64,000 nt of DNA from a virus. Location: the IMG/VR virus record IMGVR_UViG_3300025141_016305, positions 111,012-175,011 of that record. One strand, 5' to 3'. The position numbers and the translations under genes were made by a program. Positions 43,785-63,705 of the stretch are shown piece after piece; within the stretch, counting starts at the first letter, position 1, and the number at the start of each line of letters is the position of its first letter. The notes below the pieces were generated by a model. It was given only the letters and a program-made list of their open reading frames with translations, ran no database searches and was not told the origin of the DNA.

Positions 43785-44978
43785 CTAGCGTGATTTAAGT
43801 GTTTTGATGTGTTCTAGGGCAGTTTGTAGCAGGTCTTTATTTAATTGAAAAATTTGTCTCTCCCGGTTAGGGCCGCCTATTTTAGTTTTGACAAGGCCTA
43901 ATTCTTTCAATACATCCACCATTCGGGCAGCCCGATTATAACCTATACTTAATTTTTTTTGCAAGAACCCATGGATTCCTCCAAGGGTGGGTGGAGATTG
44001 TTTTTTAGGATACTTAATAAGAACATGTAATGCATCAAGAAATCGAGGGTCTTGTATAGCTACTCGAATCAAATCATCGCTAAGTAAAGTGTCTCTGGCT
44101 TTTGGGCTTCTTCTAGGAGGGTTTTCATATGCTCTAGGAATCTCATCTGGAATGAAATCCAAAGTGTCGTCTTTTCCAATATTTGCATCTCTTTCTTTTA
44201 CTTTCTGTCTGACAAAATTTTGTGCATCCAAAAATCTTTCATGAACTGTTTTTGGCAATTCTTTCGCTACACTGTCAGTCATCCACTCGCTAGGTTTTCC
44301 TGCTTGGTCTAATAGACCCATTTGAGGTGTTGCAACTCGCTTGATCGGAGCTGATGGGAGAGGATCACTCATGCTACTTGGCAAAGGTGGAAAATCTACT
44401 TGTGTTTTCTTTTTTCCTAAACTAGATAATTTATCCAAAGACGTTGGTTCGTCTCCAATAGGAGGCCTCTGGTAAATCTGCCTATCTTTAACTTTTGATC
44501 CGGATTTTCTGATTGCTTCTCTGGTTTGTTTTTCGACAACATCTGTAACCTTATCTACCTGGTCGACATAATAAAATATTTTTTCGGCTACTTCGTTTTG
44601 TGGTGCTCTCACTAAAGCATCGGATGATTTTAAAGATTTGCTAGCTTTTTTTAATTTTAGGGCACCTTTTAGCGCTCGACCTGCTTGGCCAAGCAAAGGA
44701 AGGGCCGCGGCCAGTGATATAGCTAGATTGGCAGCTGCAAAAATGTTGCGATACTTCTCAAATGCTTCGATGGCAGGAGGGATGTCCGGATAAGCTGATA
44801 TCCCTGTTGGATCGAAAAGTCCTATAACCGTGCGTAAGTTTTCAAAATCTTCTTCTGATACTTTAACGTTTCCGAGATCTGGATCTGGGGAAGTGATCAC
44901 CCGGGCGGTGTCTGGATCTGTTATATCTATTTCTCTTAGATACTTTCTCCAGCTTTCCATTATGAGTTGATGTTTCAT
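43785..44978 (-). CDS. Protein with phage-type leader, hydrophobic segment and C-terminal FtsK-gamma winged helix
   Basis: MKHQLIMESWRKYLRE; DPRFLDAL...LQKKLSIGYNRAARMVDVLKELGLV. Confidence 0.75.
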   Translation of the reverse strand: MKHQLIMESWRKYLREIDITDPDTARVITSPDPDLGNVKVSEEDFENLRTVIGLFDPTGISAYPDIPPAIEAFEKYRNIFAAANLAISLAAALPLLGQAGRALKGALKLKKASKSLKSSDALVRAPQNEVAEKIFYYVDQVDKVTDVVEKQTREAIRKSGSKVKDRQIYQRPPIGDEPTSLDKLSSLGKKKTQVDFPPLPSSMSDPLPSAPIKRVATPQMGLLDQAGKPSEWMTDSVAKELPKTVHERFLDAQNFVRQKVKERDANIGKDDTLDFIPDEIPRAYENPPRRSPKARDTLLSDDLIRVAIQDPRFLDALHVLIKYPKKQSPPTLGGIHGFLQKKLSIGYNRAARMVDVLKELGLVKTKIGGPNRERQIFQLNKDLLQTALEHIKTLKSR

Positions 44979-44989
44979 GATATATTCTC

Positions 44990-45265
44990 TTATTCAAGCT
45001 GGCCTAAATCTCTGGCAGCATTTCCAGATATATATTTTACAGCTGAATTCATGTAATCTCCTGCTTTTGTTATTTTTGTTTCAAGCCATTCTGGTAAATC
45101 ATCTTTATCTTCTATGAGGCTTAAAAGAATTTTTGTATCTGCCAATAGATGAGCTAAAGTTGTACGATGCATTCTAGCTTCTTCTTGATTCTGCGCATTT
45201 GGCATCGATGATACCTTGGCATCCGTACAGCCACAACTTTCTTGTATACTAATTTTAATTTTCAT
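44990..45265 (-). CDS. Hypothetical phage protein
   Basis: 91 aa, DDLPEWLETKITKAGDYM; ACTATTTA 4 nt before the ATG. Confidence 0.65.
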   Translation of the reverse strand: MKIKISIQESCGCTDAKVSSMPNAQNQEEARMHRTTLAHLLADTKILLSLIEDKDDLPEWLETKITKAGDYMNSAVKYISGNAARDLGQLE

Positions 45266-45309
45266 ATATTAAATAGTCCCCGATAAGAGAAAAGCTTGGT
45301 GGAGGTGGC
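45263..45309 (-). repeat. Copy of the tmRNA 3' end + trailer + promoter motif + ATG
   Basis: GCCACCTCCACCAAGCTTTTCTCTTATCGGGGACTATTTAATATATG vs tmRNA-side GCCACCTCCACCAA-CTTTTCTAATATTGGAGACTAATTAAAATATG (ending 38636). Confidence 0.85.
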
Positions 45310-45326
45310 AGTTCGAGTTCAAATGC

Positions 45327-45908
45327 TTATTGTTTTCGAAAAACATATATACTATCAGGCTCGCCGGGTACCTTCTCTCTGATTATTAGCTCTTTATTGT
45401 TATATGATATTGCCCAGTTCTCTACTCTTTGGCCGCTGTTCGGGTCGAAGAAGTGTAGTTTTCCTTTCTCATCAGCATCAGCTTTAAAAATCAATTCGCG
45501 GTTACGGCGCTGGCGGTTGATTCTTTTTCGCTGTGAGACTCTGCTGCCGGAAAAAAAACGCAAGTTCCAACGTAGATCTACGCTTGGGGGCGTAGCTCGT
45601 ATTGGCTGGCCAGGGTATGGCTTCAAGGGGTTGGTATATGTATGCACCTTGGATCTTTCGTGATCAAGATCCCAGGCCGTGTCTTCGAGATCTTTTGCAG
45701 CTTGGAGCTGTTCTGCTTGTTGTTTTGCTTCTTTCGCGGAGGCCTCTTTTTTAGCTTTCATTTGATTATGCTTCACCAGCGCCTTCATGCGGGCCTTATG
45801 GATTTTGGATATAGGACGAGGTTCTGGTTCGTCCTCGATATCGGTAGCCAGTGTCGTCTCTATTTCTTCTTCGATTATTCTTAGCAAATATTGTTTTGTG
45901 ATCTTCAT
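45327..45908 (-). CDS. Hypothetical protein with shared leader
   Basis: MKITKQYLLRIIEEEIE; ACTATTTA 4 nt before the ATG. Confidence 0.7.
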   Translation of the reverse strand: MKITKQYLLRIIEEEIETTLATDIEDEPEPRPISKIHKARMKALVKHNQMKAKKEASAKEAKQQAEQLQAAKDLEDTAWDLDHERSKVHTYTNPLKPYPGQPIRATPPSVDLRWNLRFFSGSRVSQRKRINRQRRNRELIFKADADEKGKLHFFDPNSGQRVENWAISYNNKELIIREKVPGEPDSIYVFRKQ

Positions 45909-45912
45909 ACAT

Positions 45913-45920
45913 TAAATAGT
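45913..45920 (-). promoter_or_regulatory. Putative late promoter motif ACTATTTA (representative of ~9 sites)
   Basis: [AC]CTA[ATG]TTA also at 5020, 34415, 38643, 45270, 50575, 53370, 61634 and 63739, each upstream of a minus-strand start. Confidence 0.6.
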
Positions 45921-45929
45921 ATAAATTAT

Positions 45930-46277: not shown

Positions 46278-46352
46278 AACCCCTGTGCTGTTTTGCCAAC
46301 CTTCCTACCAAGGGTATCATATGAAGCTTAAAAATTCAAGGGTAATGAGCAA

Positions 46353-49300
46353 CTATTCTGCTGCCTGAGTAAATTCACCCATTCCCGGGGCTGATGAAGC
46401 TTGAGTCGAGGCTTGATCATAAGCTGTATTTGTTGGCTCTTCCACATTAATGGCTGTTTCATTATCCCATTTATCAAAATAAAGTTTAACATTTGCAATG
46501 AGATAATCGTGATACATTTCCTGATCTTCAGGATTGTCTAGTTCTCCATAGTAATTAACAATAGACTTTTCAATTGCTGGGTAGATTCTTTCTGCTTTAT
46601 TTCTACCAGTAGTATCTTCCCCTTCTATGGAAGCCATAGTTTCTTCTTCAGGCTCATCTGGTAGTTCCTTTTCTGATCCGTCGTCAGCATCGATAAACAT
46701 TTCAGCATCGACACCTTGAACATCTACTCCAACCTCTTCACTTATAGTTACTTCTGCAAGTTGGTCTGCTCCAACGTCATTTAAGCGAACCGGCGTTAAA
46801 GTATCTTGAATCCATTTTACAATATGAGCCCTAAAGGAACTCTTCTGATCCTCATCAGTAGTTAAGGTTTTGTAGGCTTCTCTCATAGTTGCTAAAATAT
46901 TAGTATTTTTTAAGAGGTCTTTAAGAGTGTTAATTCCAGTATTATCATGCACATCAACAGTTGGATCTTCAACTTCGTTAAGGGAAGTTTCGAAAATAAT
47001 ATTTCTAAGTTGCATTCTTAATCTGTGTTCTTCTAACGCTCCAGCGATAACCTCTTCATGTTGAGAAGCCTTTTTATTAAAAAATTCCCTAAGCCCTATT
47101 CTTATCTTTTTTCGCAATCTTTTTTCTTCTTTGGTCATTTCATCATCCCTTTTGTTGTTTTTGATAGGTCCAGCATAACCAGCCACTGCGCCAGAAGACA
47201 TAGATGACATTTCTTCTATGTCTTCTTCTGCTAAAAATGCATTTGAAACGTTTTTCGTTCTATCTTTCCTGAACCCACCGCCATGTTTAGTTAAATCATG
47301 CCGGCCTTGATCTAAATAGTCCGAATGTGCTTTCGAAAGTCTTTTGCGCATATTCTTTTGAAATTTTCCACTGCCCGGGACGCCTTTTGGAGCAGTTTGC
47401 GCCCGGAACTCCTCAAATAGTTTTTCAGCTTCTTTTACGATAATTTCCTGTAGTGGGTCCAGTTCTGGCTCTTCGACTTGATCTTCAACAGATTGTGAAG
47501 AAACATCTGTATCTGCTGGGTTAAGGCCCATAATTCCCATAAATGCTAAAGCATCATCTCTGTTTGGTAAAAAGTGCTGCAGTAATTGTAGGCCGATGGG
47601 GTTTTCAGTTGCGAAATCCATTAGGGCTCGCATGTCACTTGCGTTAAATGCTGTATAATCTTTTTTCAGTTTAGATTTAATCTCTGGTAACTCTTCGATC
47701 ATTTTGATGTATTCAGAATCGTGAGTCACAAGTGGCACAAGACCAGATAAAAGCTCCAGATCTGGCCTAGACTTCTGAACCGAGGCTCTCAAGCCTTTAA
47801 ACCGTTTTGCATCATTTTCTTTGTCTCCAACCCCGACAATCACTTTTGCGTTAGGAGGTGCAATCAACAAATCTGTTGGATCCGCCGGCTTTGTTACATA
47901 ATCTATCGTTAAACTCACCGGTGTCACGCGGCCTTGGTCTGCCACTATTATTTGAGTCTTACTTCTTATAGGTGAATCCTCAAGCATGACAGTCCACATT
48001 TGTTTTGCCTGTTCTGCAGTAATAACTTTTCCAGATACAGGCAGAGGTCTAGAGTTCTTCATAGGGCTTGACACTATGATATATATTTTATCAGCCTCCG
48101 GTAAATCGCCCCGCGGGCCCCCCATCGCGATTATTTCAGCGGCCTGCCGATGGCCTTTGTGTGGTGGCTTAAAGGACCCGGGCAATATTGCAATCACTAG
48201 AGGCTCAGAACTGGCTTTTAAGACCTGTTCTCCTTCTCCGGCAGGCTCTATAGGGCCAAAGCGGTTAAATGGCCTCATACCGAGGATTTGATTGGCCGGA
48301 GCAAAGTTTCCAGTGAACTTGTAGGTAACACCATTCCACGCAAAGACGAACCCTTCAGATGGTGTATTTACACCGTCAATTGATTTAAGTTTAACCATCT
48401 GCTTTTCAAGCTCGGCTTTTGCTCTCTCGTTAGTAGATCCGCGAATGGCATCAATTTCCGTTTTAATTTTATCTTGTAAAAATTTTATTTGTTTTGGGTT
48501 ATCTCCAATAAATGCAGAATCAAAACCTTCCAGTGCCGCCGAAGAAAAGTCATGAAGAATACGTTGAAGATCTAAAGTGTAGTTAGCATAATTAAAAGTC
48601 TTTACAAATTGGCTAACTTCTCTCTTTAGTTCTATGGGCATTCCTTTTGTAATTTGGGGCAGCCCCGGATAATCTCCTATTTTCATAACTCTTTTTAAAA
48701 TCATGCGATTAACATCTTCTGTTAAGCCAAACTGTTCAATCTGGGGGGATACTTGTTCTGATACATAATGATTGATTGTATCAGAGTCATTAACTTGAAT
48801 ATCTTGCATAAGATTATTTATCGCGTCAATTGTTGGCTGTAAAGTATTGTTTATACTCTCTAAGCCTGCAGGGGCTAGTTTTCTTTGAGTGTGTGTCTCA
48901 ACAGAGAAAATCGTCGGATCATCCGTTGCTTTGCCTCTAACAACTCGCTCAAGTTTGTTGTAGTTTGGAGAAACATCTACTTTCTTGTTTTCTTCATCTG
49001 AAAGTTTTGGATCAAAATAAAAATGACCAAATTCATGAATAAGTAAAGTTTTCTTATCATATGGAATTACGTTGGTTGTTCCCGTTCTTCTAGGGTCATC
49101 CTCTTCAGCTTCAGGATTACCAGGATTCATCACTTCAACATTAAAATATATTTTGTGATCTTTGCCATTTCCAAAGATGTCCAGTAAAGTTTCCCTGTCT
49201 AGATCTTTAACTGCATTCTCAAAAGATAGCAAAGCTTCTACAAAACTGTATCTTAATGTTTGAGAAGGGTGCCCAGAAAAGAATTCGTCTAATTCTTCGG

Positions 49301-49535
49301 GGTCTAAGCCCCCAGCTTTTAATTGGCCTTTATTTCTAGCTGCAACTGCACGACCACTAGGTACGTTAAAGGAGATAGACAGATTCTGACCGTCTGTTTT
49401 TTCTGTGCCGCGCAGCTTGCCATCAGCCGCGGCCTGTAAAAGCTGCTTTAATTCACCAAAAGTCATTTCGCCATTATCATAGATATGGTTCATGTGCCCC
49501 GGTACGCCACCTTCTAAAAGAAGTTCTTTTTTCAT
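46353..49535 (-). CDS. Multidomain protein: ligase-like nucleotidyltransferase (DUF6267-like), HxGH cytidyltransferase-like domain and acidic C-terminal domain
   Basis: HMNHIYD, TEKTDGQN (KxDG), EGFVF..YKFTG; ILPGSFKPPHKGH. Confidence 0.7.
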   Translation of the reverse strand: MKKELLLEGGVPGHMNHIYDNGEMTFGELKQLLQAAADGKLRGTEKTDGQNLSISFNVPSGRAVAARNKGQLKAGGLDPEELDEFFSGHPSQTLRYSFVEALLSFENAVKDLDRETLLDIFGNGKDHKIYFNVEVMNPGNPEAEEDDPRRTGTTNVIPYDKKTLLIHEFGHFYFDPKLSDEENKKVDVSPNYNKLERVVRGKATDDPTIFSVETHTQRKLAPAGLESINNTLQPTIDAINNLMQDIQVNDSDTINHYVSEQVSPQIEQFGLTEDVNRMILKRVMKIGDYPGLPQITKGMPIELKREVSQFVKTFNYANYTLDLQRILHDFSSAALEGFDSAFIGDNPKQIKFLQDKIKTEIDAIRGSTNERAKAELEKQMVKLKSIDGVNTPSEGFVFAWNGVTYKFTGNFAPANQILGMRPFNRFGPIEPAGEGEQVLKASSEPLVIAILPGSFKPPHKGHRQAAEIIAMGGPRGDLPEADKIYIIVSSPMKNSRPLPVSGKVITAEQAKQMWTVMLEDSPIRSKTQIIVADQGRVTPVSLTIDYVTKPADPTDLLIAPPNAKVIVGVGDKENDAKRFKGLRASVQKSRPDLELLSGLVPLVTHDSEYIKMIEELPEIKSKLKKDYTAFNASDMRALMDFATENPIGLQLLQHFLPNRDDALAFMGIMGLNPADTDVSSQSVEDQVEEPELDPLQEIIVKEAEKLFEEFRAQTAPKGVPGSGKFQKNMRKRLSKAHSDYLDQGRHDLTKHGGGFRKDRTKNVSNAFLAEEDIEEMSSMSSGAVAGYAGPIKNNKRDDEMTKEEKRLRKKIRIGLREFFNKKASQHEEVIAGALEEHRLRMQLRNIIFETSLNEVEDPTVDVHDNTGINTLKDLLKNTNILATMREAYKTLTTDEDQKSSFRAHIVKWIQDTLTPVRLNDVGADQLAEVTISEEVGVDVQGVDAEMFIDADDGSEKELPDEPEEETMASIEGEDTTGRNKAERIYPAIEKSIVNYYGELDNPEDQEMYHDYLIANVKLYFDKWDNETAINVEEPTNTAYDQASTQASSAPGMGEFTQAAE

Positions 49536-49556: not shown

Positions 49557-50555
49557 TTACTTGGCCCACTTCTTAACTAAGTCTTCATAAAGATTGGCAT
49601 TTCTTTTAGAAAATCTAGATTCATAAAGGTTTTCTTCCCTTTCAGGTGTCCCATTCAATTCACTCGAAAAGTTATCCTCCTCGATAGAATCTTCGGATTC
49701 ACCCTCTTCTGTTATAGAATCCTCTTCTTCCTCATCTAGTCTGCGTCCACCGGCATCTCGCCCGGCAACGCGGTCGGGAATATCAGTTTTGCTCTGCTCT
49801 TCTAAATCTTCTTCCTCTTCGAGAGTTTCTTTGTCTCCTCGATCGCCGTCAATAATCTCTAAGGCCGCGCGCATTACATCGACTAACTCTTGCTGGCTTA
49901 AACCACTGAGAGAAACGGGACTCTCCCCCTCTTTTGGCCCATCACCCCAGCCACTTTCTGCTTCTTCGGGAGATAATTCGCTCTCCCATCCTCCCGGGGT
50001 CTCAACAGAATCCGCCTCAGTTTCTCCGCCTCCTGGGGGCTCCTCTTCATCGGCATGTAATTCAGACACTTTCTGTTCTAAAATTTTTCGAATCATCTCT
50101 TTAAGAGATTCTTTCGTATTCTTGTCGGTCATTTGTTTGTTCTCCTTTAACAGTTTCGACTCTTGCATTGTAAATTTTTCATTGTCTTCCCAATCTCGAA
50201 AACACATGTTACCAATTAAATAGGCCTCTTCTTCCATTTTGCGCATGTGGGGGTTTTCCTGCGCGTATTTGTCAGTCATCTGGCCACATTTGTCTGGTGA
50301 TAGATCTCCTCTGAGATTTTGAGTGTGATGAACCAATTCGTGGGCAAAAGATCTTAAAATATCTTTTGGATGCCGCCCGGTAATAAAGATGGTTATAGCT
50401 TTGTTTTGGGGATCATAGTGAGCAGTACTTCCTAAGAATCCTTTTGAGTTTTCAGCATCTTGTTTTAGGAAGAGTCTAGGAGGATAATCAAAGCCCATTT
50501 TGTTTTTAGCAAAGTTGGTAAATTTGCCCAATAATGGCTTAAGTTGATCAATCAT
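49557..50555 (-). CDS. HExxH metallopeptidase-like N-domain with acidic C-terminal region
   Basis: TAHYDP, RHPKDILRSFAHELVHH.Q, MEEEA. Confidence 0.65.
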   Translation of the reverse strand: MIDQLKPLLGKFTNFAKNKMGFDYPPRLFLKQDAENSKGFLGSTAHYDPQNKAITIFITGRHPKDILRSFAHELVHHTQNLRGDLSPDKCGQMTDKYAQENPHMRKMEEEAYLIGNMCFRDWEDNEKFTMQESKLLKENKQMTDKNTKESLKEMIRKILEQKVSELHADEEEPPGGGETEADSVETPGGWESELSPEEAESGWGDGPKEGESPVSLSGLSQQELVDVMRAALEIIDGDRGDKETLEEEEDLEEQSKTDIPDRVAGRDAGGRRLDEEEEDSITEEGESEDSIEEDNFSSELNGTPEREENLYESRFSKRNANLYEDLVKKWAK

Positions 50556-50611
50556 TACAAAAAACCTCTAAAAATAAATAGTTTTATTAGCTTTGATCTC
50601 CAATAAAAGTT

Positions 50612-51619
50612 TTAAATGAACTCTTTATCGCCCGAAAACATGATTTCTATATCCGGGGTGATCTCTGTTTGAATTTTGGTTGTTAGCCAGAACTCCATGT
50701 CTGCTCTATTTTTGAATTGGTATAAGCTTGGTCCATCGAACGCGCACCAACTATCAACTTGTTCCAAAACATCCATTTTATTAAAAACAATATTATTTAT
50801 TCCGTTGATCCTCGAAGCCATTTTTAACATGTCAAAATCTAACCAGTTTATTTGCCGGGGCCGCCCGGTTGTGGAACCGAACTCTTCTCCAGCCTCTCTG
50901 ATATCTTCAAAAATAGGATCCTCTCCTTCGAATTTCTTGGCGCCAACATATGTTTCATAAATTTTAGCCACACCCCAAACATCTCTTATCGCTTTTGGGG
51001 GGACGCCATTTAAAATAGCAGAACCAACCGTACAGTGTGAGGAGGTAACATAAGGGTAATCGCCCCAATCAACATCTAGGCCAAATCCCTGTGCACCCTC
51101 AAATAGTATTTCTAATTCATCTGGATCATTATCTTCATAAAGTTCTTCGTACAAGTTAATTAAAAATTTCTGTAATCTTGGATCTTCAAATGCGCGCACT
51201 CCACGTCGCGCGTATTTATCCCTATAAGCGGGCCCGTTACCTCTTTTGGTTGTTCCTATTTCTTCATCTTTCTTGTCTTCTGCTCTGTGAAAATCCGTAA
51301 TAATATGAGCATTGGTGGATACAAATATTAAACCTTCTGTTGATATTCCGTTTTCTTCTAATTCTTCAATTTCTTTTAGGAATGTATCGACGTGGATTAC
51401 ACACCCAGGCCCAATAACTGATTTTATTCCATAAAAAACACCACAAGGAATATGGTGCGTTACAAACTTCTTACCATCATGAAAGATAGTATGCCCAGCA
51501 TTGCACCCTCCATTATATCTTATTACATGTGTATAATTATTGCCGCTACAAAGAGCGTGCGCAATCTTACCTTTTCCGCAGTCTCCATATTGCAAATCCA
51601 CAACAACATCAGCAATCAT
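50612..51619 (-). CDS. purA: Adenylosuccinate synthetase (short form)
   Basis: QYGDCGKGK, RYNGGCNAGHT, GTTKRGNGPAYRDK, EGAQG..LD, YPYVTSS, EFGSTTGRPR. Confidence 0.95.
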   Translation of the reverse strand: MIADVVVDLQYGDCGKGKIAHALCSGNNYTHVIRYNGGCNAGHTIFHDGKKFVTHHIPCGVFYGIKSVIGPGCVIHVDTFLKEIEELEENGISTEGLIFVSTNAHIITDFHRAEDKKDEEIGTTKRGNGPAYRDKYARRGVRAFEDPRLQKFLINLYEELYEDNDPDELEILFEGAQGFGLDVDWGDYPYVTSSHCTVGSAILNGVPPKAIRDVWGVAKIYETYVGAKKFEGEDPIFEDIREAGEEFGSTTGRPRQINWLDFDMLKMASRINGINNIVFNKMDVLEQVDSWCAFDGPSLYQFKNRADMEFWLTTKIQTEITPDIEIMFSGDKEFI

Positions 51620-54211: not shown

Positions 54212-57200
54212 TCATACATTTTGTTGTTTTTCTCTAGCTTCTTTTAGTTTTCGGAGTATTTCTTCGCCAACAGATTGATTTTGACCAGCTAAGTCCAGGA
54301 CATCTTCAAAAAGTTCCAAATCTTGAACCAAAATTTTAGCAACCGTTATAGCTGTTTCCCGAGAGGTATCTCTTGTAAGGTCAATTGAAAATGATTTCCA
54401 TTCTTCTGTATAATCATCTTTTGGAGCTTCCTCTTCTCTAGCTGAGGAACCATACGGGTACGGTGTATAGCCTTTGCCACTGTTTTCTGTTAAAACTTCC
54501 ATAACTATTTTTTCTAAATCTTTTTTATTCATTTCTTGTATTCCTTGTTTAGTTTTTTTAACAATTGCTTTGTCGGCATCTGGTCTTATTTTTTTTGGTT
54601 CTGGCTTCATCGGCGCGCCTATTATTTTATTAGCATAATCTGGATCTTTTTTTGGATTTTTCTTTGACCGATATTTCTCGTAAAATTTTGTGCGATTTTG
54701 AAAATATGTGTCCAACATTGCTCTAGAATCCGGAAGAAGCGCACCTGCAACCACGCTTGCTCCTATCTTATTTGCGATTTCACCCCATCCTCCACCAACT
54801 CCTTGTTGATAAGCATATAATATGATTCTAGCTTTTTCGTCATCTGAGGCCACATCCCACATAGCTTTAGCATATTTGTTCTTTTTATTTTTTTCTGTTA
54901 TGTAATTCTGTACTAGTCCTAGATACTGTGGAATGCCATTAATAGATTTCATCGCGTTAAATGCATCAAAGTCTGGATCTACTTTGTCAGTAAGGTCTTG
55001 TCTCGCCCTGGCTTTGTGTTGGCCTAAACCCCAAGCCGATGCTGGAGAAACTGAGCGAGGATTCCAGGCGCTTTCTGCTTTTATTAACTTTAAAATAAAC
55101 TTTTTGCTTTTTAATGGCCCGGGCAAATCTTTCAAATCCTTAAATTTAGTGTTTTGAACGTATTGTTTTATTAACTTTATATTTTCATTTGAACTCTTTG
55201 GATCCAAAGTAAATTTTTTATTTTGAATAACTAAATCTAGTTGTCCCGGTGCACCGATTCTATACCGACCTCGAATTTCAGGTTTATCTAAGTTATAAGC
55301 CGCATATGCGTTCTGAGCATCTTCGGCTTTTTTTAGAGCGTACTTAACTCGTTCCTCTCCTTTTAAATTTTTTCCTGTTTCGTCAAAAAGAGCCTTCTTG
55401 TAAGCAGCATCGCCTACTTTTTTAAGATGTAACCGATCCGGCGCACCGATGGCCATAAATTCCGGATCATCTGGATCAAAGTCCATGTCGACAACATCTT
55501 CTGAATTGTTGCCTAGGTGATCACCGTCCCTATTTTCTTTTTGTTCAGGTAATGAAAATTTCATTTTTTTATAAACCTCCTTTTCTAGCGATGCATGCTT
55601 GTCTATTATATTGACAACTGAACCATCAACTATCTCCGATGTCTTTTTTGATGTATCATTCTTTCGTTTCGCCTTTGTTGCATCTCTTTGTAGTGTTTCA
55701 TTAATTATGTTTGGATCTTTTCTTCTTTTTAATAATTCTTTTTTTGTTAATAAAAAAGCTTGATCATCTGAAATGATCATCTCCAATACGACTGGCCGAA
55801 TATAATTTTGAAGAATTTTTTGAAAATCTTTTCCTTCAGCAAATAAAAATTCTGCCAAATTAAGATCTTTCTCATCATATCTTGGATCTTCTTTCATCGT
55901 CCTTTTGAAATATGAATAAAACTGAGAAGATGTTATGTAAGTGTTTTCATGAAAATCAGGGAAAAGATTAAAAATATTACCACCTTCTAAGACAGCATTA
56001 TCATCAATATTCTCGCTTATTTGGTTAGAATTAAGAATTATTTCTTCCATCAAGAGGCTGTAATATATTCGGGCAATAAATTTTTTCGTAATCAAAGACT
56101 TTCCCTCTCCGCCCCAGAAATTACTTAAGTCTCCCCGGCCAATTTCACTTAACAAAGGGTAGCCGTAAGCAAAAATACCACTACCAGCCGCGGCTTGCCT
56201 CCAAACACCCCCTTCTAACAGGGTTCTACTAAACCCAATTCTTAGAAGTTTGGACGTTAATTTACTAACGCCTTCTATAGACTTGGCGCCTGCTCTAGCT
56301 GCAGTTCTAGGAATAACAAAATTATCGCTTCGTGGAACTCCCCTGGGCCATGTGTATCCGGTTAGTTTGCCCTCCATTGCATCATCGAGGCTTCCATACA
56401 CCTTCTTTGTCAAGGCTTTTTCTAGTTTATCAGCATTTTTACGCATAAAATGCCCCTCTTCAACAAGATTTTCCGCAGATTTTTGCAAAGTTATAATGGT
56501 TGTATCAATATTTGATTTATTTGATCTAATAATTTCAGTCTCATCTTTAAGAGAATTTATTTTCTTTATAATAAAATCTTTGTTATTTTCTAATTCATTT
56601 ATAATTTCATCGCGTGCGGTGGCATTTGGTACGGGCAACCTAGGGGACCCAAGTCGAGGACGCATACCACTTCCAGTTCTTGCCGCGGCAAACGAATCAA
56701 GCATAGCTTCTTTTATTTCTTCAAATATTTCTTCACCACTCCGGATCGAAGATGGAGCCATATGGCTCTGGGAGTATTTTAAAACTACTGACCCTACTCT
56801 GTCACTAATTTCATTTTCAAGGGGTCTCCGCTGGGCTGCTCTTTGTGCTTTTCTGGACCCGGCACCCAGACCTATAGCTGGCTCAATGTCGGGAAATCGA
56901 TGAGACTTAAACATTATATCATTTAATTTGTTAAATAATTGTTTTTCATTTCTTTGTAACTTTTTAACACTTTTATTCAATGCTCGTACATATGGCTTCG
57001 ACGCCTTTGCTGCCATAGTGCCAATGCGCTCGACAAATATCTTTGAAAAGTTTCCAATATTTGTGTTGTTAGCTGTTTTGGCTAGCTTTCTTACTGATTC
57101 CGCCTCTCTCTTTAGCGTATTTACTATTGGAACCAATTCACTAGACACAAGATCTGCTAAATCGTCAAAATACTTAGCAGTAGTTTCGTTTAGTTTCTCG

Positions 57201-58678
57201 ACCATTAGCCCAGCTTGTTTTACAACTTCTTCTGGCAAGCCCATCTCATCAAGTTTTCCTACAAGCTCAGGGCTTGGATTGAACATCCTATCAGCGTTTC
57301 TGTTTATTCCGTTTATTTTTGCATCGTCTATAACTTTGCCAAACCAATTTACCAGATCTGTTTTCTGCTCAGAGCTAAGAGCACTGAATGGTCGACGAGA
57401 AAATCTATTATTTATCCAAGCTATGGTTGGTCGAATAATACCATCAATATCAATGCTTTGATGCACCGCTTTCCAGTCTATATTTTTTAAATTTTTATCT
57501 ATAGCCTTGCCCCATCGGCCACTTTTCAAAGCATCTGTAATAGATCCTCGAAAATCTTTGTTTTTTAAGAAATTATACGAAAAATAAGTCGGTGCTGAGA
57601 CTGTTGCGGCACCGACGCCTAAAATTGAACCTATCATGACTCTTTTTATTGCACAGCGCATGTCCCCGGGGGTTCTTCCGGACAAACCCTTTGCTAAATA
57701 CTCTAATGTAACAGCAGCACCAGTGAAAAGGCCACCCCTCAACAAAGCTTGAGATGTTTGCTGTACTCCAATCCCCCTGCCCGGGCGAGTTGCAAAAAAA
57801 GCAAAAACACTCATTCCTGATGCCCCTGTCGCTGCCCAATCACCATCCGTAGCATAAAAAGCGCCACCCCCGGCTGCAGCCCCAGCAACTGTGCCAAATA
57901 TCTTTGATGTAACTACATCACCGAGACCTGCAGCACCTCGAACTGGCAAAGATGTGCTGCTTCTATAAATTCTATTCAAATAAGACTGCAATCTATTAAA
58001 TAACCCGCCAGATTTTAAAGTACCGCCAGCAGCAGTAATTGCTGCCAAACCCAAGTTCGCCCCAGTTGAATATTGAAAGGCTGCAACCAGCGCATCAATA
58101 GCACCATGAACATTTTCAATTTTTCTATAATCATTATCACATGGCAATTCAACTTTAGCATTTCCACTAGCGGACATCCCGGTGAGTATATTAGGCAAAG
58201 CCAATTGCAATTTCTCTTCTAATTCTCTAATAATTTCTGGACGCTCTAATTCCCGCTGTTTTGGTGTTGGGCTGACTAGAGTAACGGGCACTATATTTTT
58301 TGATTTTTCACTTTGTTCTAAACCTTTTATTAAATCAAAAAGTGTTTTTCTACTATCTCCATAAACTATTGTAATCGATCTCAAGTCAGATTGAGATGTT
58401 TTTTGATTAAGCCATATATAATATTGACGCAATTGACCATTTATTGCTTCTATAGCTTGTGCTTCGCTAGAGCCACGAGGTATTATCTTTTTTAATTCTG
58501 TTTGCCTACCAGAAGAATCTTGAATAACTATAACTTTATTTAACCTATCAGATTTAGAATCTTGATTCATCTCTGGGAACCAATCAATCTCATCTTTTGT
58601 TACAATTTGCTCAAGAAAAGACTTAAGTATGTCTCCATATCTTTTTTTAGTTTCCTGTTCTAAAATTTTAGCTATCAT
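54212..58678 (-). CDS. 1488-aa protein with Gly/Ala hydrophobic segments and an SLT lytic transglycosylase domain; probable virion ejection protein
   Basis: IKAESAWNPRSVSPASAWGLGQ (catalytic ES, GLxQ), AYQQG; hydrophobic Gly-rich region at aa ~190-370. Confidence 0.75.
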   Translation of the reverse strand: MIAKILEQETKKRYGDILKSFLEQIVTKDEIDWFPEMNQDSKSDRLNKVIVIQDSSGRQTELKKIIPRGSSEAQAIEAINGQLRQYYIWLNQKTSQSDLRSITIVYGDSRKTLFDLIKGLEQSEKSKNIVPVTLVSPTPKQRELERPEIIRELEEKLQLALPNILTGMSASGNAKVELPCDNDYRKIENVHGAIDALVAAFQYSTGANLGLAAITAAGGTLKSGGLFNRLQSYLNRIYRSSTSLPVRGAAGLGDVVTSKIFGTVAGAAAGGGAFYATDGDWAATGASGMSVFAFFATRPGRGIGVQQTSQALLRGGLFTGAAVTLEYLAKGLSGRTPGDMRCAIKRVMIGSILGVGAATVSAPTYFSYNFLKNKDFRGSITDALKSGRWGKAIDKNLKNIDWKAVHQSIDIDGIIRPTIAWINNRFSRRPFSALSSEQKTDLVNWFGKVIDDAKINGINRNADRMFNPSPELVGKLDEMGLPEEVVKQAGLMVEKLNETTAKYFDDLADLVSSELVPIVNTLKREAESVRKLAKTANNTNIGNFSKIFVERIGTMAAKASKPYVRALNKSVKKLQRNEKQLFNKLNDIMFKSHRFPDIEPAIGLGAGSRKAQRAAQRRPLENEISDRVGSVVLKYSQSHMAPSSIRSGEEIFEEIKEAMLDSFAAARTGSGMRPRLGSPRLPVPNATARDEIINELENNKDFIIKKINSLKDETEIIRSNKSNIDTTIITLQKSAENLVEEGHFMRKNADKLEKALTKKVYGSLDDAMEGKLTGYTWPRGVPRSDNFVIPRTAARAGAKSIEGVSKLTSKLLRIGFSRTLLEGGVWRQAAAGSGIFAYGYPLLSEIGRGDLSNFWGGEGKSLITKKFIARIYYSLLMEEIILNSNQISENIDDNAVLEGGNIFNLFPDFHENTYITSSQFYSYFKRTMKEDPRYDEKDLNLAEFLFAEGKDFQKILQNYIRPVVLEMIISDDQAFLLTKKELLKRRKDPNIINETLQRDATKAKRKNDTSKKTSEIVDGSVVNIIDKHASLEKEVYKKMKFSLPEQKENRDGDHLGNNSEDVVDMDFDPDDPEFMAIGAPDRLHLKKVGDAAYKKALFDETGKNLKGEERVKYALKKAEDAQNAYAAYNLDKPEIRGRYRIGAPGQLDLVIQNKKFTLDPKSSNENIKLIKQYVQNTKFKDLKDLPGPLKSKKFILKLIKAESAWNPRSVSPASAWGLGQHKARARQDLTDKVDPDFDAFNAMKSINGIPQYLGLVQNYITEKNKKNKYAKAMWDVASDDEKARIILYAYQQGVGGGWGEIANKIGASVVAGALLPDSRAMLDTYFQNRTKFYEKYRSKKNPKKDPDYANKIIGAPMKPEPKKIRPDADKAIVKKTKQGIQEMNKKDLEKIVMEVLTENSGKGYTPYPYGSSAREEEAPKDDYTEEWKSFSIDLTRDTSRETAITVAKILVQDLELFEDVLDLAGQNQSVGEEILRKLKEAREKQQNV

Positions 58679-59439
58679 CTATCTATTGGTCTCCTCTTTT
58701 CACCCGGACTCACAATTCTAGTATCGGGAGCAGCGTCTTTGTTCAGTTGCTGATGCAATATCTTAACTATAGCTTGTGTATCAATTGGTTTATTATCTAT
58801 TGTCTTATCAACTTCAACTCTAACATGATTTCTTTTAATCTCGGGAGAGGGCCTGCTTGGTCCTTCATGGTATTGAACAATGTAACTAAAGTATCTGTAC
58901 GCATAAGGATCATCATTTTTAAATTTATCTATTTTTTCTACTTCGGCTCTTGACAAAAGTTTCACTCCCAGCATTTGAATATTACCAAATTCGTTAGTAT
59001 ACTGCACCATGTCATCGCCAAGAGATTCTATCTTCCCTGCATTCCATAATTCCTCTGACTGCTCTTCTGGTTGTTCTTCTGGTTTCTGATTAATTTGGTC
59101 GACCGTGCGAGGGTCCTCTTCTTCATCACCTAAATTTTGATCATCTACGTCTGGAAATTCATCTTTAACATCTTGAGTTCTTTTTTCTGTATCTTCGTCT
59201 CCACTCAGACCCGGGTCGTCCGCCCCGGTGGTAGTACCAGTGGGTGTCCCAGTAATGCTGCCTCCACCAGTATCGTCACCGCCGGCCAGCCCGATGCCAT
59301 CACCTTCTTCCGGTGAAGTAACTTGTATTAGCTTTGTAATTTTTCTTTTTTTCTTCCTCTCTTTCTCTTCCGCTAGAGACATCACTTCTTTGACTATATC
59401 AATTAGGTCCTTTTTCAGGAGTGTTTTTGTATCATTCAT
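58675..59439 (-). CDS. Acidic protein with shared leader
   Basis: LLKKDLIDIVKEVMS leader; D/E/G/T-rich linker. Confidence 0.7.
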   Translation of the reverse strand: MNDTKTLLKKDLIDIVKEVMSLAEEKERKKKRKITKLIQVTSPEEGDGIGLAGGDDTGGGSITGTPTGTTTGADDPGLSGDEDTEKRTQDVKDEFPDVDDQNLGDEEEDPRTVDQINQKPEEQPEEQSEELWNAGKIESLGDDMVQYTNEFGNIQMLGVKLLSRAEVEKIDKFKNDDPYAYRYFSYIVQYHEGPSRPSPEIKRNHVRVEVDKTIDNKPIDTQAIVKILHQQLNKDAAPDTRIVSPGEKRRPIDR

Positions 59440-61600
59440 ATCTCGACCACCTCGAAAACCAATATGCTATATTTGCAATATTATCCAAAAGGATCTTAGC
59501 CTCTGAAGGGTTTAGACCATCTTCGCTCGTTATATTAGAATATATTTGCAAAAACCCGGCTGTACTTTGAAGAAAAGTTATATAATTTTTTAAAAAAACA
59601 ATATATTTCTTTAGAGCATCTATATTTTTTTCTTCTATAATTTCTATTAATTTTTCCGCCCTGCCTGCAGATTTGATCAATGAAAGAAAATAGTCTGTAA
59701 CATCATTGACATGTTCGGGATATATTACTTCGCCTGTACTTCTTTTTATTCCTATTGTTCCATTTTTGATAGCCGCGGCTAAGCCTGTGCTTTGTGCTCC
59801 TGCTCTTGTGCTGGTGATAAAAGATATTGGGACAGCTCTATCATCATCATAATTTAAAAAACCAATAGAATATACTCTCCTCCCGGCTCCGAGTGCAGAA
59901 AGATCCACGCGAGTTAGCCCCAGCCAACCATTTATCATAAATTCATCTAATTCAGGACTTAACATAACCCCGCCTCCGCGGCGTCTTATTGCACTTTCTC
60001 TGTCATAAAATCTAGACCTTAAATTTTCCCCTTTTTGCCAAAGTGCTGATGCGTCTGATTCTGCTTTTCTAACAAAGTTAAAAAACCCGCCGCCACGAGA
60101 TGTTTTTAAACTTGCGATTATATCATTTGAAGGAGTTATCCGATCGGGGCTTTGTAAGGCTTGGTTGAAAAAGTCTATATATTCTTCTAATCGATCTATA
60201 TCTTTGCCTTTTCCGATGAGATTTAATATTCCTCTTTTTACCTTGTTTGTCTCAATATCTTCGCCAAATCCCTCTTCCTCATTCAATGTATCGAGAATTG
60301 TATTCCAGGTTGAACCAAGTAGTCCCATCGGCCGTCCTCCAATGATGGGATCGACCGGCGTTGTGATATAGTTTATAAAATCATTTAATTGTTTTTCAAT
60401 TGAATATGAAAGTGTAGTTTCTATTGTTTGTTCTATTTTCCCCACTTCATCGAAGAAGTTGGATAAGTTCTCTAATTTGTTACCTGCAAATTGTATTAAT
60501 TTATCTTTTGATCTTTCACCTGTTATTTCTTGTCTGTAAATTTGAGATGTATTTTCGATGTCTTTAAATAAAAACCTAACTTGTCGTGCCTTTTCTTTGT
60601 CGTGCTGTGCAATCTCAAGAAGAAACGAGTCGATTAATCTCCAAATTCTGTCAAGAATAATAAATATTCCACTTTCTGCTTCCTCAAGCTCGTATACATC
60701 TGATTTGACTTCTTGAATTTTATTTTTTAATTCTTCCAAAAGAGACGCAGAATCTTGTCTGATTTTTTTTAAAGAAAAGCTTCCACCAAGTGCTGTTTGT
60801 ATTGTCGTAAAAATTAAAAAATCTGAGATTAGTGATGTTGTAAAACTTAGACCACCCATATATGGGTGGAAGCTTGCAAGGATGGATATCGCGACAGACA
60901 CCAAATCAACTGCGCTGTTCCACTCTTTATCTTGAAAAGCTCTTTTCTTTAGCCATGGCTCGATTATTCTCTTGTGTTTCCCAATTTCCGTCGCGACGTC
61001 TAAATAGAACCCTTCAAAATTTTCAGATTTTTGTTGAACTTGTTGTAAGACGGGCCCATCTATGTTTAATATACGCATAATTGCAGTGTTCATATCTGTT
61101 ATCTCTTTTCTGTCAAGAACTCTATGAAAAAAATAATTAGCATAATCTTTCTGCACCGGACGCAGGCCCGGGCCAAGCTCTTTTAATCCTTCTGCGCTTC
61201 CGTACCATTTAATGAAGAAAGCAATCCCCATCCTTATAGATTTAATATTATCAAGTTTAGCTTTTTTTGATTTATCTATTTTAAGTTTTTTGAGTGTTTT
61301 TCCTAAATTAATTGTTTTTTTAGATGGAACAAGAACAATCCTTGAAGAATATTTATCAACTTGTCTTATATCCTTTGCGATAGAATTTTTAGCGTTAAGA
61401 AAGTAACGCACCTCTTGTTTTTTAATAGAATTTTTAAAATCTTTAATAGGATTAGATATATCCCTTCCGATTCCAGGGTCAGCACCGCCTGGACCTGTAG
61501 ATACACCAACACCAAGTCCAATATCCTGGGTGATCCTATCCATTTCTTCTTTTACTAATTTTTGTAAGTACTTTTTACCTACTAAGGTGGTATGAGACAT
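59432..61600 (-). CDS. 722-aa protein with shared leader and an internal hydrophobic hairpin
   Basis: VGKKYLQKLVKEEM; AVDLVSVAISILASF...LISDFLIFTTI. Confidence 0.7.
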   Translation of the reverse strand: MSHTTLVGKKYLQKLVKEEMDRITQDIGLGVGVSTGPGGADPGIGRDISNPIKDFKNSIKKQEVRYFLNAKNSIAKDIRQVDKYSSRIVLVPSKKTINLGKTLKKLKIDKSKKAKLDNIKSIRMGIAFFIKWYGSAEGLKELGPGLRPVQKDYANYFFHRVLDRKEITDMNTAIMRILNIDGPVLQQVQQKSENFEGFYLDVATEIGKHKRIIEPWLKKRAFQDKEWNSAVDLVSVAISILASFHPYMGGLSFTTSLISDFLIFTTIQTALGGSFSLKKIRQDSASLLEELKNKIQEVKSDVYELEEAESGIFIILDRIWRLIDSFLLEIAQHDKEKARQVRFLFKDIENTSQIYRQEITGERSKDKLIQFAGNKLENLSNFFDEVGKIEQTIETTLSYSIEKQLNDFINYITTPVDPIIGGRPMGLLGSTWNTILDTLNEEEGFGEDIETNKVKRGILNLIGKGKDIDRLEEYIDFFNQALQSPDRITPSNDIIASLKTSRGGGFFNFVRKAESDASALWQKGENLRSRFYDRESAIRRRGGGVMLSPELDEFMINGWLGLTRVDLSALGAGRRVYSIGFLNYDDDRAVPISFITSTRAGAQSTGLAAAIKNGTIGIKRSTGEVIYPEHVNDVTDYFLSLIKSAGRAEKLIEIIEEKNIDALKKYIVFLKNYITFLQSTAGFLQIYSNITSEDGLNPSEAKILLDNIANIAYWFSRWSRYE

Positions 61601-61682
61601 AGATATTAGCCCTAAAAAATGAAATATACTCTCTAAATAGTATATTTTACCTTAAACTAGGCTATTTTTTAAATTCAAATTG

Positions 61683-61889
61683 TTATTCTTGACCCCAATC
61701 ACAGTCGCAAGGACTACAACTGCAAAAATCACAGTAATTTCCATAATTTTCCGTGATATATTCATCAATTTTTTTAATAACCTCTTCAAAGTGTTCCACA
61801 CTAAGCGTCATTGACATTTCAACTAAGTTTGACTTTGCTTCCCACGGAGTCATGTTGCCTTTTTCGAGACCGCTACATATAAAACACAT
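61683..61889 (-). CDS. Small Cys-rich (putative Zn-binding) protein
   Basis: MCFIC ... YCDFCSCSPCDCDWG. Confidence 0.6.
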   Translation of the reverse strand: MCFICSGLEKGNMTPWEAKSNLVEMSMTLSVEHFEEVIKKIDEYITENYGNYCDFCSCSPCDCDWGQE

Positions 61890-61893
61890 ATTT

Positions 61894-62010
61894 TTACCTA
61901 TTTTTTGATTTTTTCTTTTCTAAATCTTCAACTCGATTATCTAAATCGTTCCAAGCGGTAGTCATACCAACTGCGAGAGTTAAGATTGTTATAAAAACTC
62001 CAATTTCCAT
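61894..62010 (-). CDS. 38-aa membrane peptide (not in ORF track)
   Basis: MEIGVFITILTLAVGMTTAWNDLDNRVEDLEKKKSKNR*; fills the gap between neighbours. Confidence 0.45.
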   Translation of the reverse strand: MEIGVFITILTLAVGMTTAWNDLDNRVEDLEKKKSKNR

Positions 62011-62012
62011 TC

Positions 62013-62456
62013 TCATAGTCGTTTGTTACCGATTTTTGTGTTAAACTGTTCAAATAGAGCAGTGGCGATGCTCTCCAAGCCAGAAAAAGCAACGGTTCGA
62101 CTCTTACGCCCGCCCAAAGTAACTACTAGAGTAGGGAGAATTCTTATATTTGTCCCTTCAGTAAGTTTTTTCACCCAAGGTTCTTCCATATTAACAAATA
62201 AAACCTTATTTGTCCAGCCCATTTGTTCCATAATCGCATGCAGGTAGCGACAGGAATTACACTTCATAGTAGTTAGCAGTATATAATCAGGCTTTTTATC
62301 GTCTCTAAGTGCCGATTCTAATTGAGAAATCGTAATCCAAGGTGGAACTCTATGCTTAACAACAGTAATTTCAACTTTTTTTTCCTTCTTTGTCGCAGGA
62401 GCCGAAGAACAACCCATAAAAATGCTTAAAAATACTATGGTGATCCACTTTATCAT
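62013..62456 (-). CDS. Thioredoxin-fold lipoprotein
   Basis: Lipobox FMGC; CNSC (CxxC); cis-Pro-like 'LPTL'. Confidence 0.65.
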   Translation of the reverse strand: MIKWITIVFLSIFMGCSSAPATKKEKKVEITVVKHRVPPWITISQLESALRDDKKPDYILLTTMKCNSCRYLHAIMEQMGWTNKVLFVNMEEPWVKKLTEGTNIRILPTLVVTLGGRKSRTVAFSGLESIATALFEQFNTKIGNKRL

Positions 62457-63277
62457 GTCATTTTCATAGAAATATCACTAACAAGTTCCGCTATAGCGTC
62501 TTCAACTATTTCTGGATCTCCGAGGCCTCTCTTTACAAGGTCGAAAAAACTTTTTGCCGTTTGGGGATTTTTTGCGGGGTGCCCATCAGGTAGCTTATCC
62601 AACTCATTTTCCACTTCTAGTGCGATTTTTTCATCCAACTCGTTGTCGGTTTCCAATTCGATCATTTGTTCGGAGACCAAATGTTGATTTTTCTTGAAGT
62701 AATTTTCAAATATTCCCTCTTTTAGTCCCGTACGCATAGGATCCATAACCATTTGGCGAGTTTTGGAACCTTCTTTCCAGCTGTTTAATATTTCATTCCA
62801 CTTTTCTATTGGCTGTTTTGCAACATCTCTTATAACTTTGTCGAATTCTCCAAAAAAGAGTTCTGATCCTGAGTCCAAAAGATCAATTGCAAATTGACCA
62901 GCGCGCTCCCGCGATTGGGGATTCTTTAAGAGATCGAGCACCTTTGTCGCGACATCATCATAGTTGTCACGAACCCACTTGTGTATTGGTTTTTGGCTTT
63001 TTTCTAATGAGTCTTTAATTTTTTTAGCAGTATCGTCATAGTCATCATATATCCACTTATCAAGTTGGTTCTTGTATTTTGTGAGAGCATAATGTGGATC
63101 TTTATTCAAGTCATCTGCGACTTCTTTTGCTTTCTTTCTCACCTTGGCCAGGTGTGGCTCGATTGAATCATCGTAGTGTTTGTCTAATTTTAGTGCCGCC
63201 TGAATATGACTATTGTTCAATAATCTATCTACACTTTTTTCTATTTTTTGAAGACGGATTTCTATATCTTCTGGCAT
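62453..63277 (-). CDS. Hypothetical helical protein
   Basis: 274 aa; short internal repeat (KW..D.YDD.A.K). Confidence 0.65.
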   Translation of the reverse strand: MPEDIEIRLQKIEKSVDRLLNNSHIQAALKLDKHYDDSIEPHLAKVRKKAKEVADDLNKDPHYALTKYKNQLDKWIYDDYDDTAKKIKDSLEKSQKPIHKWVRDNYDDVATKVLDLLKNPQSRERAGQFAIDLLDSGSELFFGEFDKVIRDVAKQPIEKWNEILNSWKEGSKTRQMVMDPMRTGLKEGIFENYFKKNQHLVSEQMIELETDNELDEKIALEVENELDKLPDGHPAKNPQTAKSFFDLVKRGLGDPEIVEDAIAELVSDISMKMT

Positions 63278-63309
63278 TTTGTTTTCCTTGTATTATATTT
63301 ATCGAGTTT

Positions 63310-63705
63310 TTAGAGGCCACCACCACCCATTTGCCATTTATAACTGCCATACATCCCCGCGAAGGACTCAAGCCAAGAACCGTCCTTAAGTGGGTTGCCT
63401 TCGTCTTTAAATAATTTAGTACATTGTTCAACACTATCACAGTAAGGTCCGACCAATATTCTAGCCAAAGCTGACGCAGAGCGTTTATCGTTGTTAAGGA
63501 AATCAACAACGGAACTTTCTCCGTCGAACTCTTCCAGTCCCGCAGAGGACTTGTTTTTTAACACTGTTTTAAGAGCAGCTTTTAACACAGGGTGCACCTT
63601 CCACATTTTGCCCGGTACATTTAGAGATTCTGAGCGTTGCTCGTTTAAGATTTTGATAATCTCTTCTTCGATAATTTTTTCAAGATATTTTTTATTGATT
63701 TTCAT
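63310..63705 (-). CDS. Hypothetical protein with shared leader
   Basis: MKINKKYLEKIIEEEIIKILNE; ACTATTTA upstream. Confidence 0.7.
   Translation of the reverse strand: MKINKKYLEKIIEEEIIKILNEQRSESLNVPGKMWKVHPVLKAALKTVLKNKSSAGLEEFDGESSVVDFLNNDKRSASALARILVGPYCDSVEQCTKLFKDEGNPLKDGSWLESFAGMYGSYKWQMGGGGL

Follow-up and report, generated by a model that had tools for sequence, protein, structure and literature searches.

The internal proteins of bacteriophage T4 reportedly carry a capsid targeting sequence (CTS), which Mullaney and Black are said to have described in 1996. Encapsulin cargo-loading peptides and the N-terminal capsid-targeting region of the phage P1 protein DarB are further short portable peptides, and they bring diverse cargo into an HK97-fold shell. 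Here we describe a short leader, called the tag from here on, that opens otherwise unrelated proteins of an uncultured virus. We analyzed the last 64 kb (positions 111,012 to 175,011) of the 175,011-bp IMG/VR virus record IMGVR_UViG_3300025141_016305. This whole stretch is the window. Encapsulin peptides differ from the tag, as we read it below: they are C-terminal, uncleaved, and bind the shell itself. The P1 Dar system is not known to have a comparably widely shared consensus tag.

In T4, an N-terminal leader of 10-19 residues brings IPI, IPII, IPIII, and Alt to the scaffold core and is taken off by gp21 (PMC9026906, PMC3012670, PMC5694885). More precisely, residues 4 and 7 govern the targeting, and residues 8 and 10 govern the processing (PMC9026906). 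The T4 internal proteins are described as basic (PMC9026906). Likewise, in the giant phages phiKZ, 201phi2-1, and SPN3US, a T4-related protease cuts long N-terminal propeptides from ejection and inner-head proteins at x-x-E motifs. These phages have paralogs with identical N-terminal 15-mers, read by the authors as CTS-like (PMC5694885). However, the giant-phage propeptides mostly exceed 100 residues and occur on only some dozens of large proteins, whereas the tag has 16-22 residues and sits on thousands of small ORFans.

We distinguish two classes of tag, type 1 and type 2. Like the T4 CTS, they are short N-terminal leaders on unrelated cargo of a T4-type phage, they end in the protease motif (L/I)-x-E, and their cargo genes are hypervariable. 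The hydrophobic spacing is the same, with Y4, F7, I8, and E10 in T4, L8, I11, I12, and E14 in type 1, and W, F/Y, L, and E in type 2. The genome studied here also has gp21-, gp23-, and gp55-type genes. Compared with the T4 CTS, type 1 has a greater length (16-22 residues), much stronger conservation, and a far wider distribution (12,579 clusters). It often has two candidate cut sites, occurs also internally and in tandem, and precedes mostly acidic cargo. Its capsid-targeting role is putative.

A portable tag family with two classes

By pattern and profile searches, the shared leader is one of a very large group of portable N-terminal tags. This undescribed family has two classes and occurs in a marine T4-like clade. 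Our literature searches, on the tag motif and on CTS-like tags in metagenomic T4-like phages, found no paper describing it. A degenerate DNA pattern, in which only M-K-x-x-K-x-x-L-x-x-I-I-x-E-E was fixed, served to scan viral contigs. At least 120 stretches matched, and 24 of 80 loci among the matches listed hold two to five copies within a few kb. From the matches listed we took 116 open reading frames (ORFs) for the conservation statistics, 102 sequences for the clustering of cargo, and 96 full ORFs for Pfam.

Positions that the pattern left free are also conserved in the 116 ORFs: I/L3 in 93%, T/S4 in 94%, K/R9 in 80%, and K/R13 in 81%. The type-1 consensus is MK[IL]TKxQLKQIIKEE[LI], in which position 7 is also given as x. 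We denote the family consensus MKITKSQLKQIIKEEL for the marine type 1 and MKxL[LM]xEWRxFLxE for type 2. Residues 19-22 show a weaker hydrophobic-hydrophobic-x-E. Beyond them, there is only sequence rich in Gly, Pro, Asp, and Ser.

The synonymous sites are free. Leu8 is encoded by CTT (38), CTA (34), and TTA (25), and Glu15 by GAA (60) and GAG (56). A GGAG-like Shine-Dalgarno sequence lies at -12 to -9, with no other conserved nucleotide block upstream. The synonymous variation and the Shine-Dalgarno sequence indicate that these are real starts and that selection acts at the protein level. A nucleotide-level element as the basis of the leader was ruled out by the same variation.

The cargo presents almost no relatedness. 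Past residue 24, the 102 sequences fall into 99 BLASTP clusters. Pfam recognized almost nothing in the 96 full ORFs, and no family covered the tag. In orthologs, the tag is retained and the adjoining linker has diverged. With the type-1 profile we searched 1.84 billion cluster representatives (50% identity) and obtained 12,579 clusters at E <= 0.001. The initial annotation had proposed a modular tag on unrelated cargo, and the breadth of the family, the cargo clustering, and the selection on protein sequence bear this out.

Many of the top-scoring clusters have 2-4 tags per ORF. Their internal tags often follow E-x-K, which resembles a ribosome-binding site that is translated, and some of these tags have no Met. 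We verified two of the multi-tag ORFs on DNA with table 11 (L034:10856 and L054:4960, both on the plus strand). Other multi-tag proteins include P0001, P0004, and P0030. From their sequences, these ORFs could be either in-frame fusions of adjacent tag genes or true polyproteins. Type-2 tags occur in the same loci as type 1, for example four in locus L015 and three in L026. In the complete 190-kb relative G001, type 1 occurs about eleven times at an N-terminus and twice internally, and type 2 at least five times.

We rejected the identity of the tag as a Sec/Tat or lipoprotein signal peptide on composition. Such a signal has a positively charged N-terminal region and then an unbroken hydrophobic core of some 7-15 residues, whereas the charged residues of the tag (K2, K5, K9, K13, E14, and E15) break every hydrophobic run. 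The first 25 residues contain no transmembrane-like window in any of the carriers.

Among the carrier contigs, the proteases of two were searched. They are closest to those of Microcystis phage Mel-JY01 and Flavobacterium phage vB_FspM_immuto (hereafter immuto), with 54-60% identity. This likeness suggests that the carriers form one uncultured clade. The degenerate pattern K-x-x-L-x-x-I-I-x-E-E is absent from nine cultured T4-like phages (P-HM2, S-RSM4, S-SSM7, Mel-JY01, RM378, P-TIM40, DSL-LC03, C48C1, and HTVC008M), which include cyanomyophages and the pelagiphage HTVC008M. An expected presence of the tag in cyanomyophages thus did not hold for those tested. One pattern copy is present in the 484-kb uncultured phage LR756508. 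Immuto has one weak tag-like copy, immuto35A_175, with the N-terminus MKKSELVKLIKEEL. A tblastn search of cultured phages with the 24-residue tag gave no match, probably owing to the short query and the low-complexity filter.

Tag instances in this genome

The phage is uncultured and marine. By its gene content, it is a distant T4-like myovirus, and its host is probably of Bacteroidota type. The record has an estimated completeness of 96%, and the minus strand carries nearly all genes. Its gp23-type major capsid protein, encoded outside the window, has immuto and Mel-JY01 (47%) and Rhodothermus phage RM378 (41%) as top cultured matches. The identity to T4-type capsid proteins is 30-47%. Also outside the window are the genes of a gp20-type portal and of a gp21-type (S77) prohead protease (phrog_207, E = 5.5e-55). 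The protease gene occupies genome 61583-62197 and a scaffold gene genome 58048-59175. The phage encodes a GroEL-like protein.

We ran the regular expression L..[ILV][ILV].E[EV][ILMV], written after the instances had been seen, on the 173 ORFs of the whole 175-kb genome. It matches seven times. Six of the seven matches fall at residues 1-15, where shuffled proteins give an expectation of 0.04. Because the expression was post hoc, we built an independent type-1 profile from 96 tags of other contigs only. This profile matches four proteins of the genome, all starting at residue 1-3, and the next score in the proteome is 3.2 bits. The type-2 profile came from 13 type-2 tags of other contigs, with 3000 random fragments as controls. 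The protein of 397 amino acids (aa) scores 19.2 bits and the 868-aa protein 14.6 bits, compared with at most 6.0 bits in the controls, although these scores are partly by construction since both proteins also satisfy the expression that gathered the training set.

In total, profiles support tags on six proteins of the genome, four of type 1 and two of type 2. Three of them are in the window (193, 131, and 397 aa; Table 1). The carriers show no relatedness among them beyond the tag. The window therefore holds three supported carriers, three doubtful instances, and two chance matches. All positions given by the initial annotation are correct gene starts or in-frame positions. It had reported the shared leader at the starts 45908, 63705, 61600, and 59439. 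The profile confirms the first two, and the other two score within the range of the controls. The second leader type, reported at 44978, stands.

A search of 5.8 billion proteins gave no homolog of the 193-aa protein. In the 131-aa protein, a second site, L-N-E, ends at residue 22, the usual position in the family. After its tag, the 397-aa protein presents a conserved Ala-rich hydrophobic segment and then a C-terminal FtsK-gamma winged helix (FtsK_gamma, E = 2.1e-9). Its three homologs (35-60% identity) keep ME.W[RK].YL.E and lack the FtsK-gamma domain. This DNA-binding domain is found only in the copy of this phage; the homologs stop about 100 residues earlier, with a Lys-rich tail.

The motifs of the 722-, 254-, and 1488-aa proteins are less clear. 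The 722-aa motif matches the regular expression, but it scores 3.4 bits on the type-1 profile, and 37 of the 3000 controls score as high. The sole ortholog of this protein (62% identity) keeps the motif as KKYLKNLVKEEI, and the next 30 residues diverge. Pfam, PHROGs, and ESM Atlas gave nothing on the function of the protein (the Atlas model has a predicted local distance difference test value, pLDDT, of 0.40). A related-loci search with it returned 13 pattern matches, none of them confirmed. The 254-aa motif also matches the expression, at the same offset, with 0.1 bits. The start of the 254-aa gene overlaps the stop of the 722-aa gene, which places both in one operon. In the 1488-aa protein the motif is internal, and an AAGGA ribosome-binding-like sequence (AAGGAAT) lies upstream of it.

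These three motifs are alike (KK[YD]L..[IL]V.E[EV][ML]). Possibly they represent a local, degenerate form of type 1, considering their mutual likeness, the same offset of the two N-terminal copies, the adjacent genes, and the conservation in the 722-aa ortholog. Alternatively, they and the internal copies of the 332- and 1060-aa proteins could be chance products of a proteome rich in Lys, Glu, and Ile. The profile scores of the five (3.4, 0.1, 0.3, 1.3, and -0.1 bits) lie inside the range of the 3000 random fragments, and the expression that includes the motifs was devised post hoc. Against chance, the first three share a common form, the two N-terminal copies are both at residues 9-20, and their adjacent genes form one unit headed by the upstream motif ACTATTTA. 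The 722-aa ortholog, moreover, conserves the motif where the following sequence does not hold. We regard the chance explanation as possible but rather doubtful.

The internal TKESLKEMIRKILEQ (50132, 332-aa protein, 1.3 bits) and RLRMQLRNIIFETSLNE (about 47020, 1060-aa protein, -0.1 bits) are at chance level, so these two proteins are without a supported tag. The internal recurrence claimed for these two positions and for 54532 (0.3 bits) is accordingly not sustained by the type-1 profile. Of the cargo that the initial annotation had listed, the FtsK-gamma protein is tagged, with type 2. The lytic transglycosylase (SLT), the 'ligase-like/HxGH' protein of 1060 aa, and the 'metalloprotease' of 332 aa, which make up half of that list, have no supported N-terminal tag. 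A third N-terminal class, taken from the 1060-aa protein (MKKELLLEGG), was dropped, as we found it nowhere else.

Table 1. Positions of tag carriers, variant motifs, upstream motifs, and other features. Coordinates are those of the window unless the genome is named.
Feature	Position	Strand	Details
193-aa ORFan protein	45327..45908	-	type-1 profile 27.9 bits, residues 1-29
Type-1 tag of 193-aa protein, MKITKQYLLRIIEEEI	45861-45908	-	residues 1-16; canonical; acidic/proline linker next
131-aa protein	63310..63705	-	type-1 profile 24.0 bits, residues 1-28
Type-1 tag of 131-aa protein, MKINKKYLEKIIEEEIIKILNE	63640-63705	-	residues 1-22; canonical
397-aa protein	43785..44978	-	type-2 carrier
Type-2 tag of 397-aa protein, MKHQLIMESWRKYLRE	44931-44978	-
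56-aa and 144-aa type-1 proteins	genome 72713-73324		neighbours, outside window; 26.2 and 17.8 bits
868-aa PcfJ-like protein	genome 5127-7733		type-2 tag; outside window
722-aa protein	59432..61600	-
Variant motif of 722-aa protein, KKYLQKLVKEEM	61541-61576	-	residues 9-20
254-aa acidic protein	58675..59439	-
Variant motif of 254-aa protein, KKDLIDIVKEVM	59380-59415	-	residues 9-20
1488-aa protein	54212..58678	-	SLT lytic transglycosylase domain, residues 1192-1261, E = 6.9e-5, 22.8 bits (cut-off 21.3)
Internal variant motif of 1488-aa protein, MNKKDLEKIVMEVLTE	54485-54532	-	from Met1383; type-1 profile 0.3 bits
CTATTTA	63739..63745	-	40 nucleotides (nt) upstream of 131-aa tag gene
CTATTTA	61634-61640	-	40 nt upstream of 722-aa gene
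CTATTTA	50575-50581	-	before 332-aa gene
CTATTTA	45913-45919	-	11 nt upstream of 193-aa tag gene
CTATTTA	45270-45276	-	before 91-aa gene heading unit with 397-aa gene
gp55-like late sigma factor	5044..5739	-	phrog_234 'late sigma transcription factor', E = 7.2e-6
1060-aa protein	46353-49535	-	HEFGH and PHKGH
332-aa protein	49557-50555	-	HELVH; tail very acidic
Adenylosuccinate-synthetase homolog (335 aa)	50612-51619	-	Pfam Adenylsucc_synt E = 4.4e-87; PurZ-type phrog_1211 E = 6.8e-73
Pol-beta-type nucleotidyltransferase	52144-52953
NUDIX hydrolase	52946-53359
Glycan gene run	~6500-30100	-	about 25 genes
NeuB-like gene	8789-9610		in the glycan gene run
CMP-sugar synthetase-like gene	9600-10244		in the glycan gene run
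Giant ORFs (3606 and 3357 aa)	genome 88461-113622		window 1-2611 (-) is part of the 3606-aa ORF
Mre11/Rad50-like ORF (1045 aa)	genome 69518-72655		L002:14519-17656
bS21 homolog	genome 60910-61149		L002:5911-6150; outside window; Pfam Ribosomal_S21 E = 1.4e-10

Proposed capsid loading and other explanations

The best reading of the tags, held with moderate confidence, is that they are T4-style capsid-targeting propeptides. Two sequence classes of a short N-terminal address peptide, MK[IL]TKxxLKQIIKEE[LI] for type 1 and MKxL[LM]xEWRxFLxE for type 2, would each form an amphipathic helix. The helix would dock the new protein on the scaffold core of an assembling T4-type prohead, and the shell would close around the docked cargo. 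Then, the gp21-type (S77) protease would cut behind the Glu of [ILV]-x-E. This cut would fall at residue 14, and often a further one would follow at 21 or 22. Thus freed in the head, the cargo could exit with the DNA at infection. Four lines of evidence point indirectly to this reading: the association with the S77 protease, the [ILV]-x-E motif together with the site in the capsid protein, the excess of second cut sites, and an upstream motif shared with structural genes.

First, several features of a CTS are present: a short N-terminal leader on unrelated proteins, an (L/I/V)-x-E end, and a genome that encodes an S77 protease, a gp23-type capsid protein, and a scaffold. We found the S77 protease in 11 of the 15 carrier contigs, among them all nine of those at least 39% complete. 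The four contigs without it are fragments, 11-23% complete.

Second, the tags and the T4 CTS all fit hydrophobic-x-x-hydrophobic-[ILV]-x-E (phi-x-x-phi-phi-x-E). With a slash for the cut, the T4 leader reads MKTYQEFIAE/A. The type-2 tags here would read ...WREFLAE/A and ...WRKYLRE/I, and type 1 ...L-x-x-I-I-x-E/E. I12-x-E14 is present in all type-1 tags, as the search pattern demanded, and the invariant residues are [IV]-x-E by pattern match only. The predicted maturation site of the capsid protein, LRE/A, aligns to LTE/A of T4, and VSE/A of immuto does likewise. This alignment makes a conserved protease specificity plausible.

Third, 45% of the tags have a further [LIV]-x-E that ends at residue 21 or 22, compared with 1.8% per position in the cargo. 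This site was outside the search pattern. It coincides with the end of conservation, and a stretch rich in Gly, Pro, and Asp comes next.

Finally, CTATTTA (ACTATTTA) is the 7-mer most enriched upstream of genes in this genome, with 15 upstream regions against 2.4 expected. It precedes the portal, scaffold, and sheath genes and a giant structural ORF. It stands directly before five of eight tag genes (hypergeometric P = 2.4e-4), and the remaining three come later within the units that it heads. In G001 the motif has a strong bias to the coding strand (30 vs 4) and precedes scaffold, sheath, tube, and tag genes. The gp55-like sigma factor encoded in the window could use CTATTTA as a late promoter.

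Several observations weigh against capsid loading. The [ILV]-x-E motif is short, and helices with many Lys, Glu, and Ile residues often contain it. On neither profile, type 1 or type 2, do the N-termini of T4 IPI, IPII, and IPIII score above 0 bits. What ties the tags to the T4 CTS is thus a pattern, with homology not shown; between the tags and the T4 leaders (MKTYQEFIAE, MKTFKEF...) only phi-x-x-phi-phi-x-E is common. In other contigs the cargo is mostly acidic, with a median isoelectric point of 5.1, in contrast to the T4 internal proteins. In this phage, however, the cargo part is basic in four of six proteins. The tags also occur internally and in tandem within ORFs, which a strictly N-terminal signal would not require. 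The S77 association was counted among carrier contigs only, and the canonical tag was in none of the cultured phages examined. Cleavage, packaging, and injection of the carriers are all inferred.

Some of these points would suit a different role. As the main alternative, the tags could be docking helices for another shared partner, such as a hub of phage or host like a chaperonin (the GroEL-like protein of the phage is one), a protease adaptor, or a membrane or replication factor. They would localize many small, rapidly evolving effectors or set their stability, and the presence of [ILV]-x-E would have no meaning for this role. A charged, amphipathic helix with a linker behind it is a generic interaction module, and the internal copies, the mostly acidic cargo (unlike the T4 internal proteins), and the lack of a score for the T4 targeting sequence on either profile are consistent with such a role. 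Nevertheless, it leaves unexplained the restriction of the tag to genomes with a T4-type protease, the second [LIV]-x-E at the exact end of conservation, and the sharing of CTATTTA with portal, scaffold, and sheath genes. We consider docking to another partner unlikely, although credible.

Very improbable, in our view, is a hitch-hiking 'start cassette', by which new ORFans recombine downstream of an existing ribosome-binding site and its first ~15 codons: tandem, hyperplastic arrays of tag genes (as at the 24 of 80 loci with two to five copies, among the matches listed), ORFan-like cargo, and neighbouring tag genes sometimes fused in frame via a translated ribosome-binding site would fit it, but codons vary freely under near-invariant amino acids across 12,579 clusters, only the Shine-Dalgarno sequence is conserved upstream, and some internal tags keep the motif without Met.

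Returning to capsid loading, a broader version can be proposed tentatively. It is quite possible that a clade of abundant uncultured marine T4-like phages loads a very large and fast-turnover set of small proteins by means of two interchangeable and nearly invariant peptides. Some would be polyproteins with internal tags, cut by the head protease. Delivered into the host with the DNA, the loaded proteins would constitute an effector arsenal much larger than that of T4.

Neighbouring genes and meaning for marine phages

A 1045-aa ORF that joins a Mre11-like phosphoesterase and a Rad50/SMC-like ATPase immediately precedes the two type-1 tag genes found outside the window. In T4 these functions are two proteins (gp47 and gp46), whereas here they are in one ORF. 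The head-gene module includes a homolog of the ribosomal protein bS21. Two giant, presumably structural ORFs have 3606 and 3357 aa, the second a few genes after the first.

The 1060- and 332-aa proteins both present HExxH. They match separate parts of one 907-aa immuto protein, immuto35A_182, annotated as NadR. By these matches, the gene is either split in this phage or fused in immuto. Next to them, a short adenylosuccinate-synthetase homolog has a NUDIX hydrolase and a Pol-beta-type nucleotidyltransferase as neighbours. This group might belong to a 2-aminoadenine (Z-base) pathway or to another takeover of purines. Neither the 1488-aa protein nor the 21-kb region found a close relative in the cultured-phage collection.

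A run of genes in the first half of the window encodes N-termini that resemble, by eye only, glycosyltransferases and enzymes of sugar-nucleotide and nonulosonic-acid synthesis. It includes NeuB-like and CMP-sugar synthetase-like genes, and it is a large glycan island for a phage.

The tag has a direct use in annotation, as a simple profile flags the proteins that bear it. If the tags are capsid-loading signals, thousands of ORFans of the ocean virome could be placed inside the head, with the first seconds of infection as the likely time of action. The tagged ORFans would be prime candidates for anti-defence or takeover factors. The short portable tag might serve for protein packaging in phages that infect Bacteroidota-type hosts. 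Capsid targeting of the T4 kind, known to date only in T-even coliphages and in modified form in giant phages, would then extend to a distant and abundant marine lineage.

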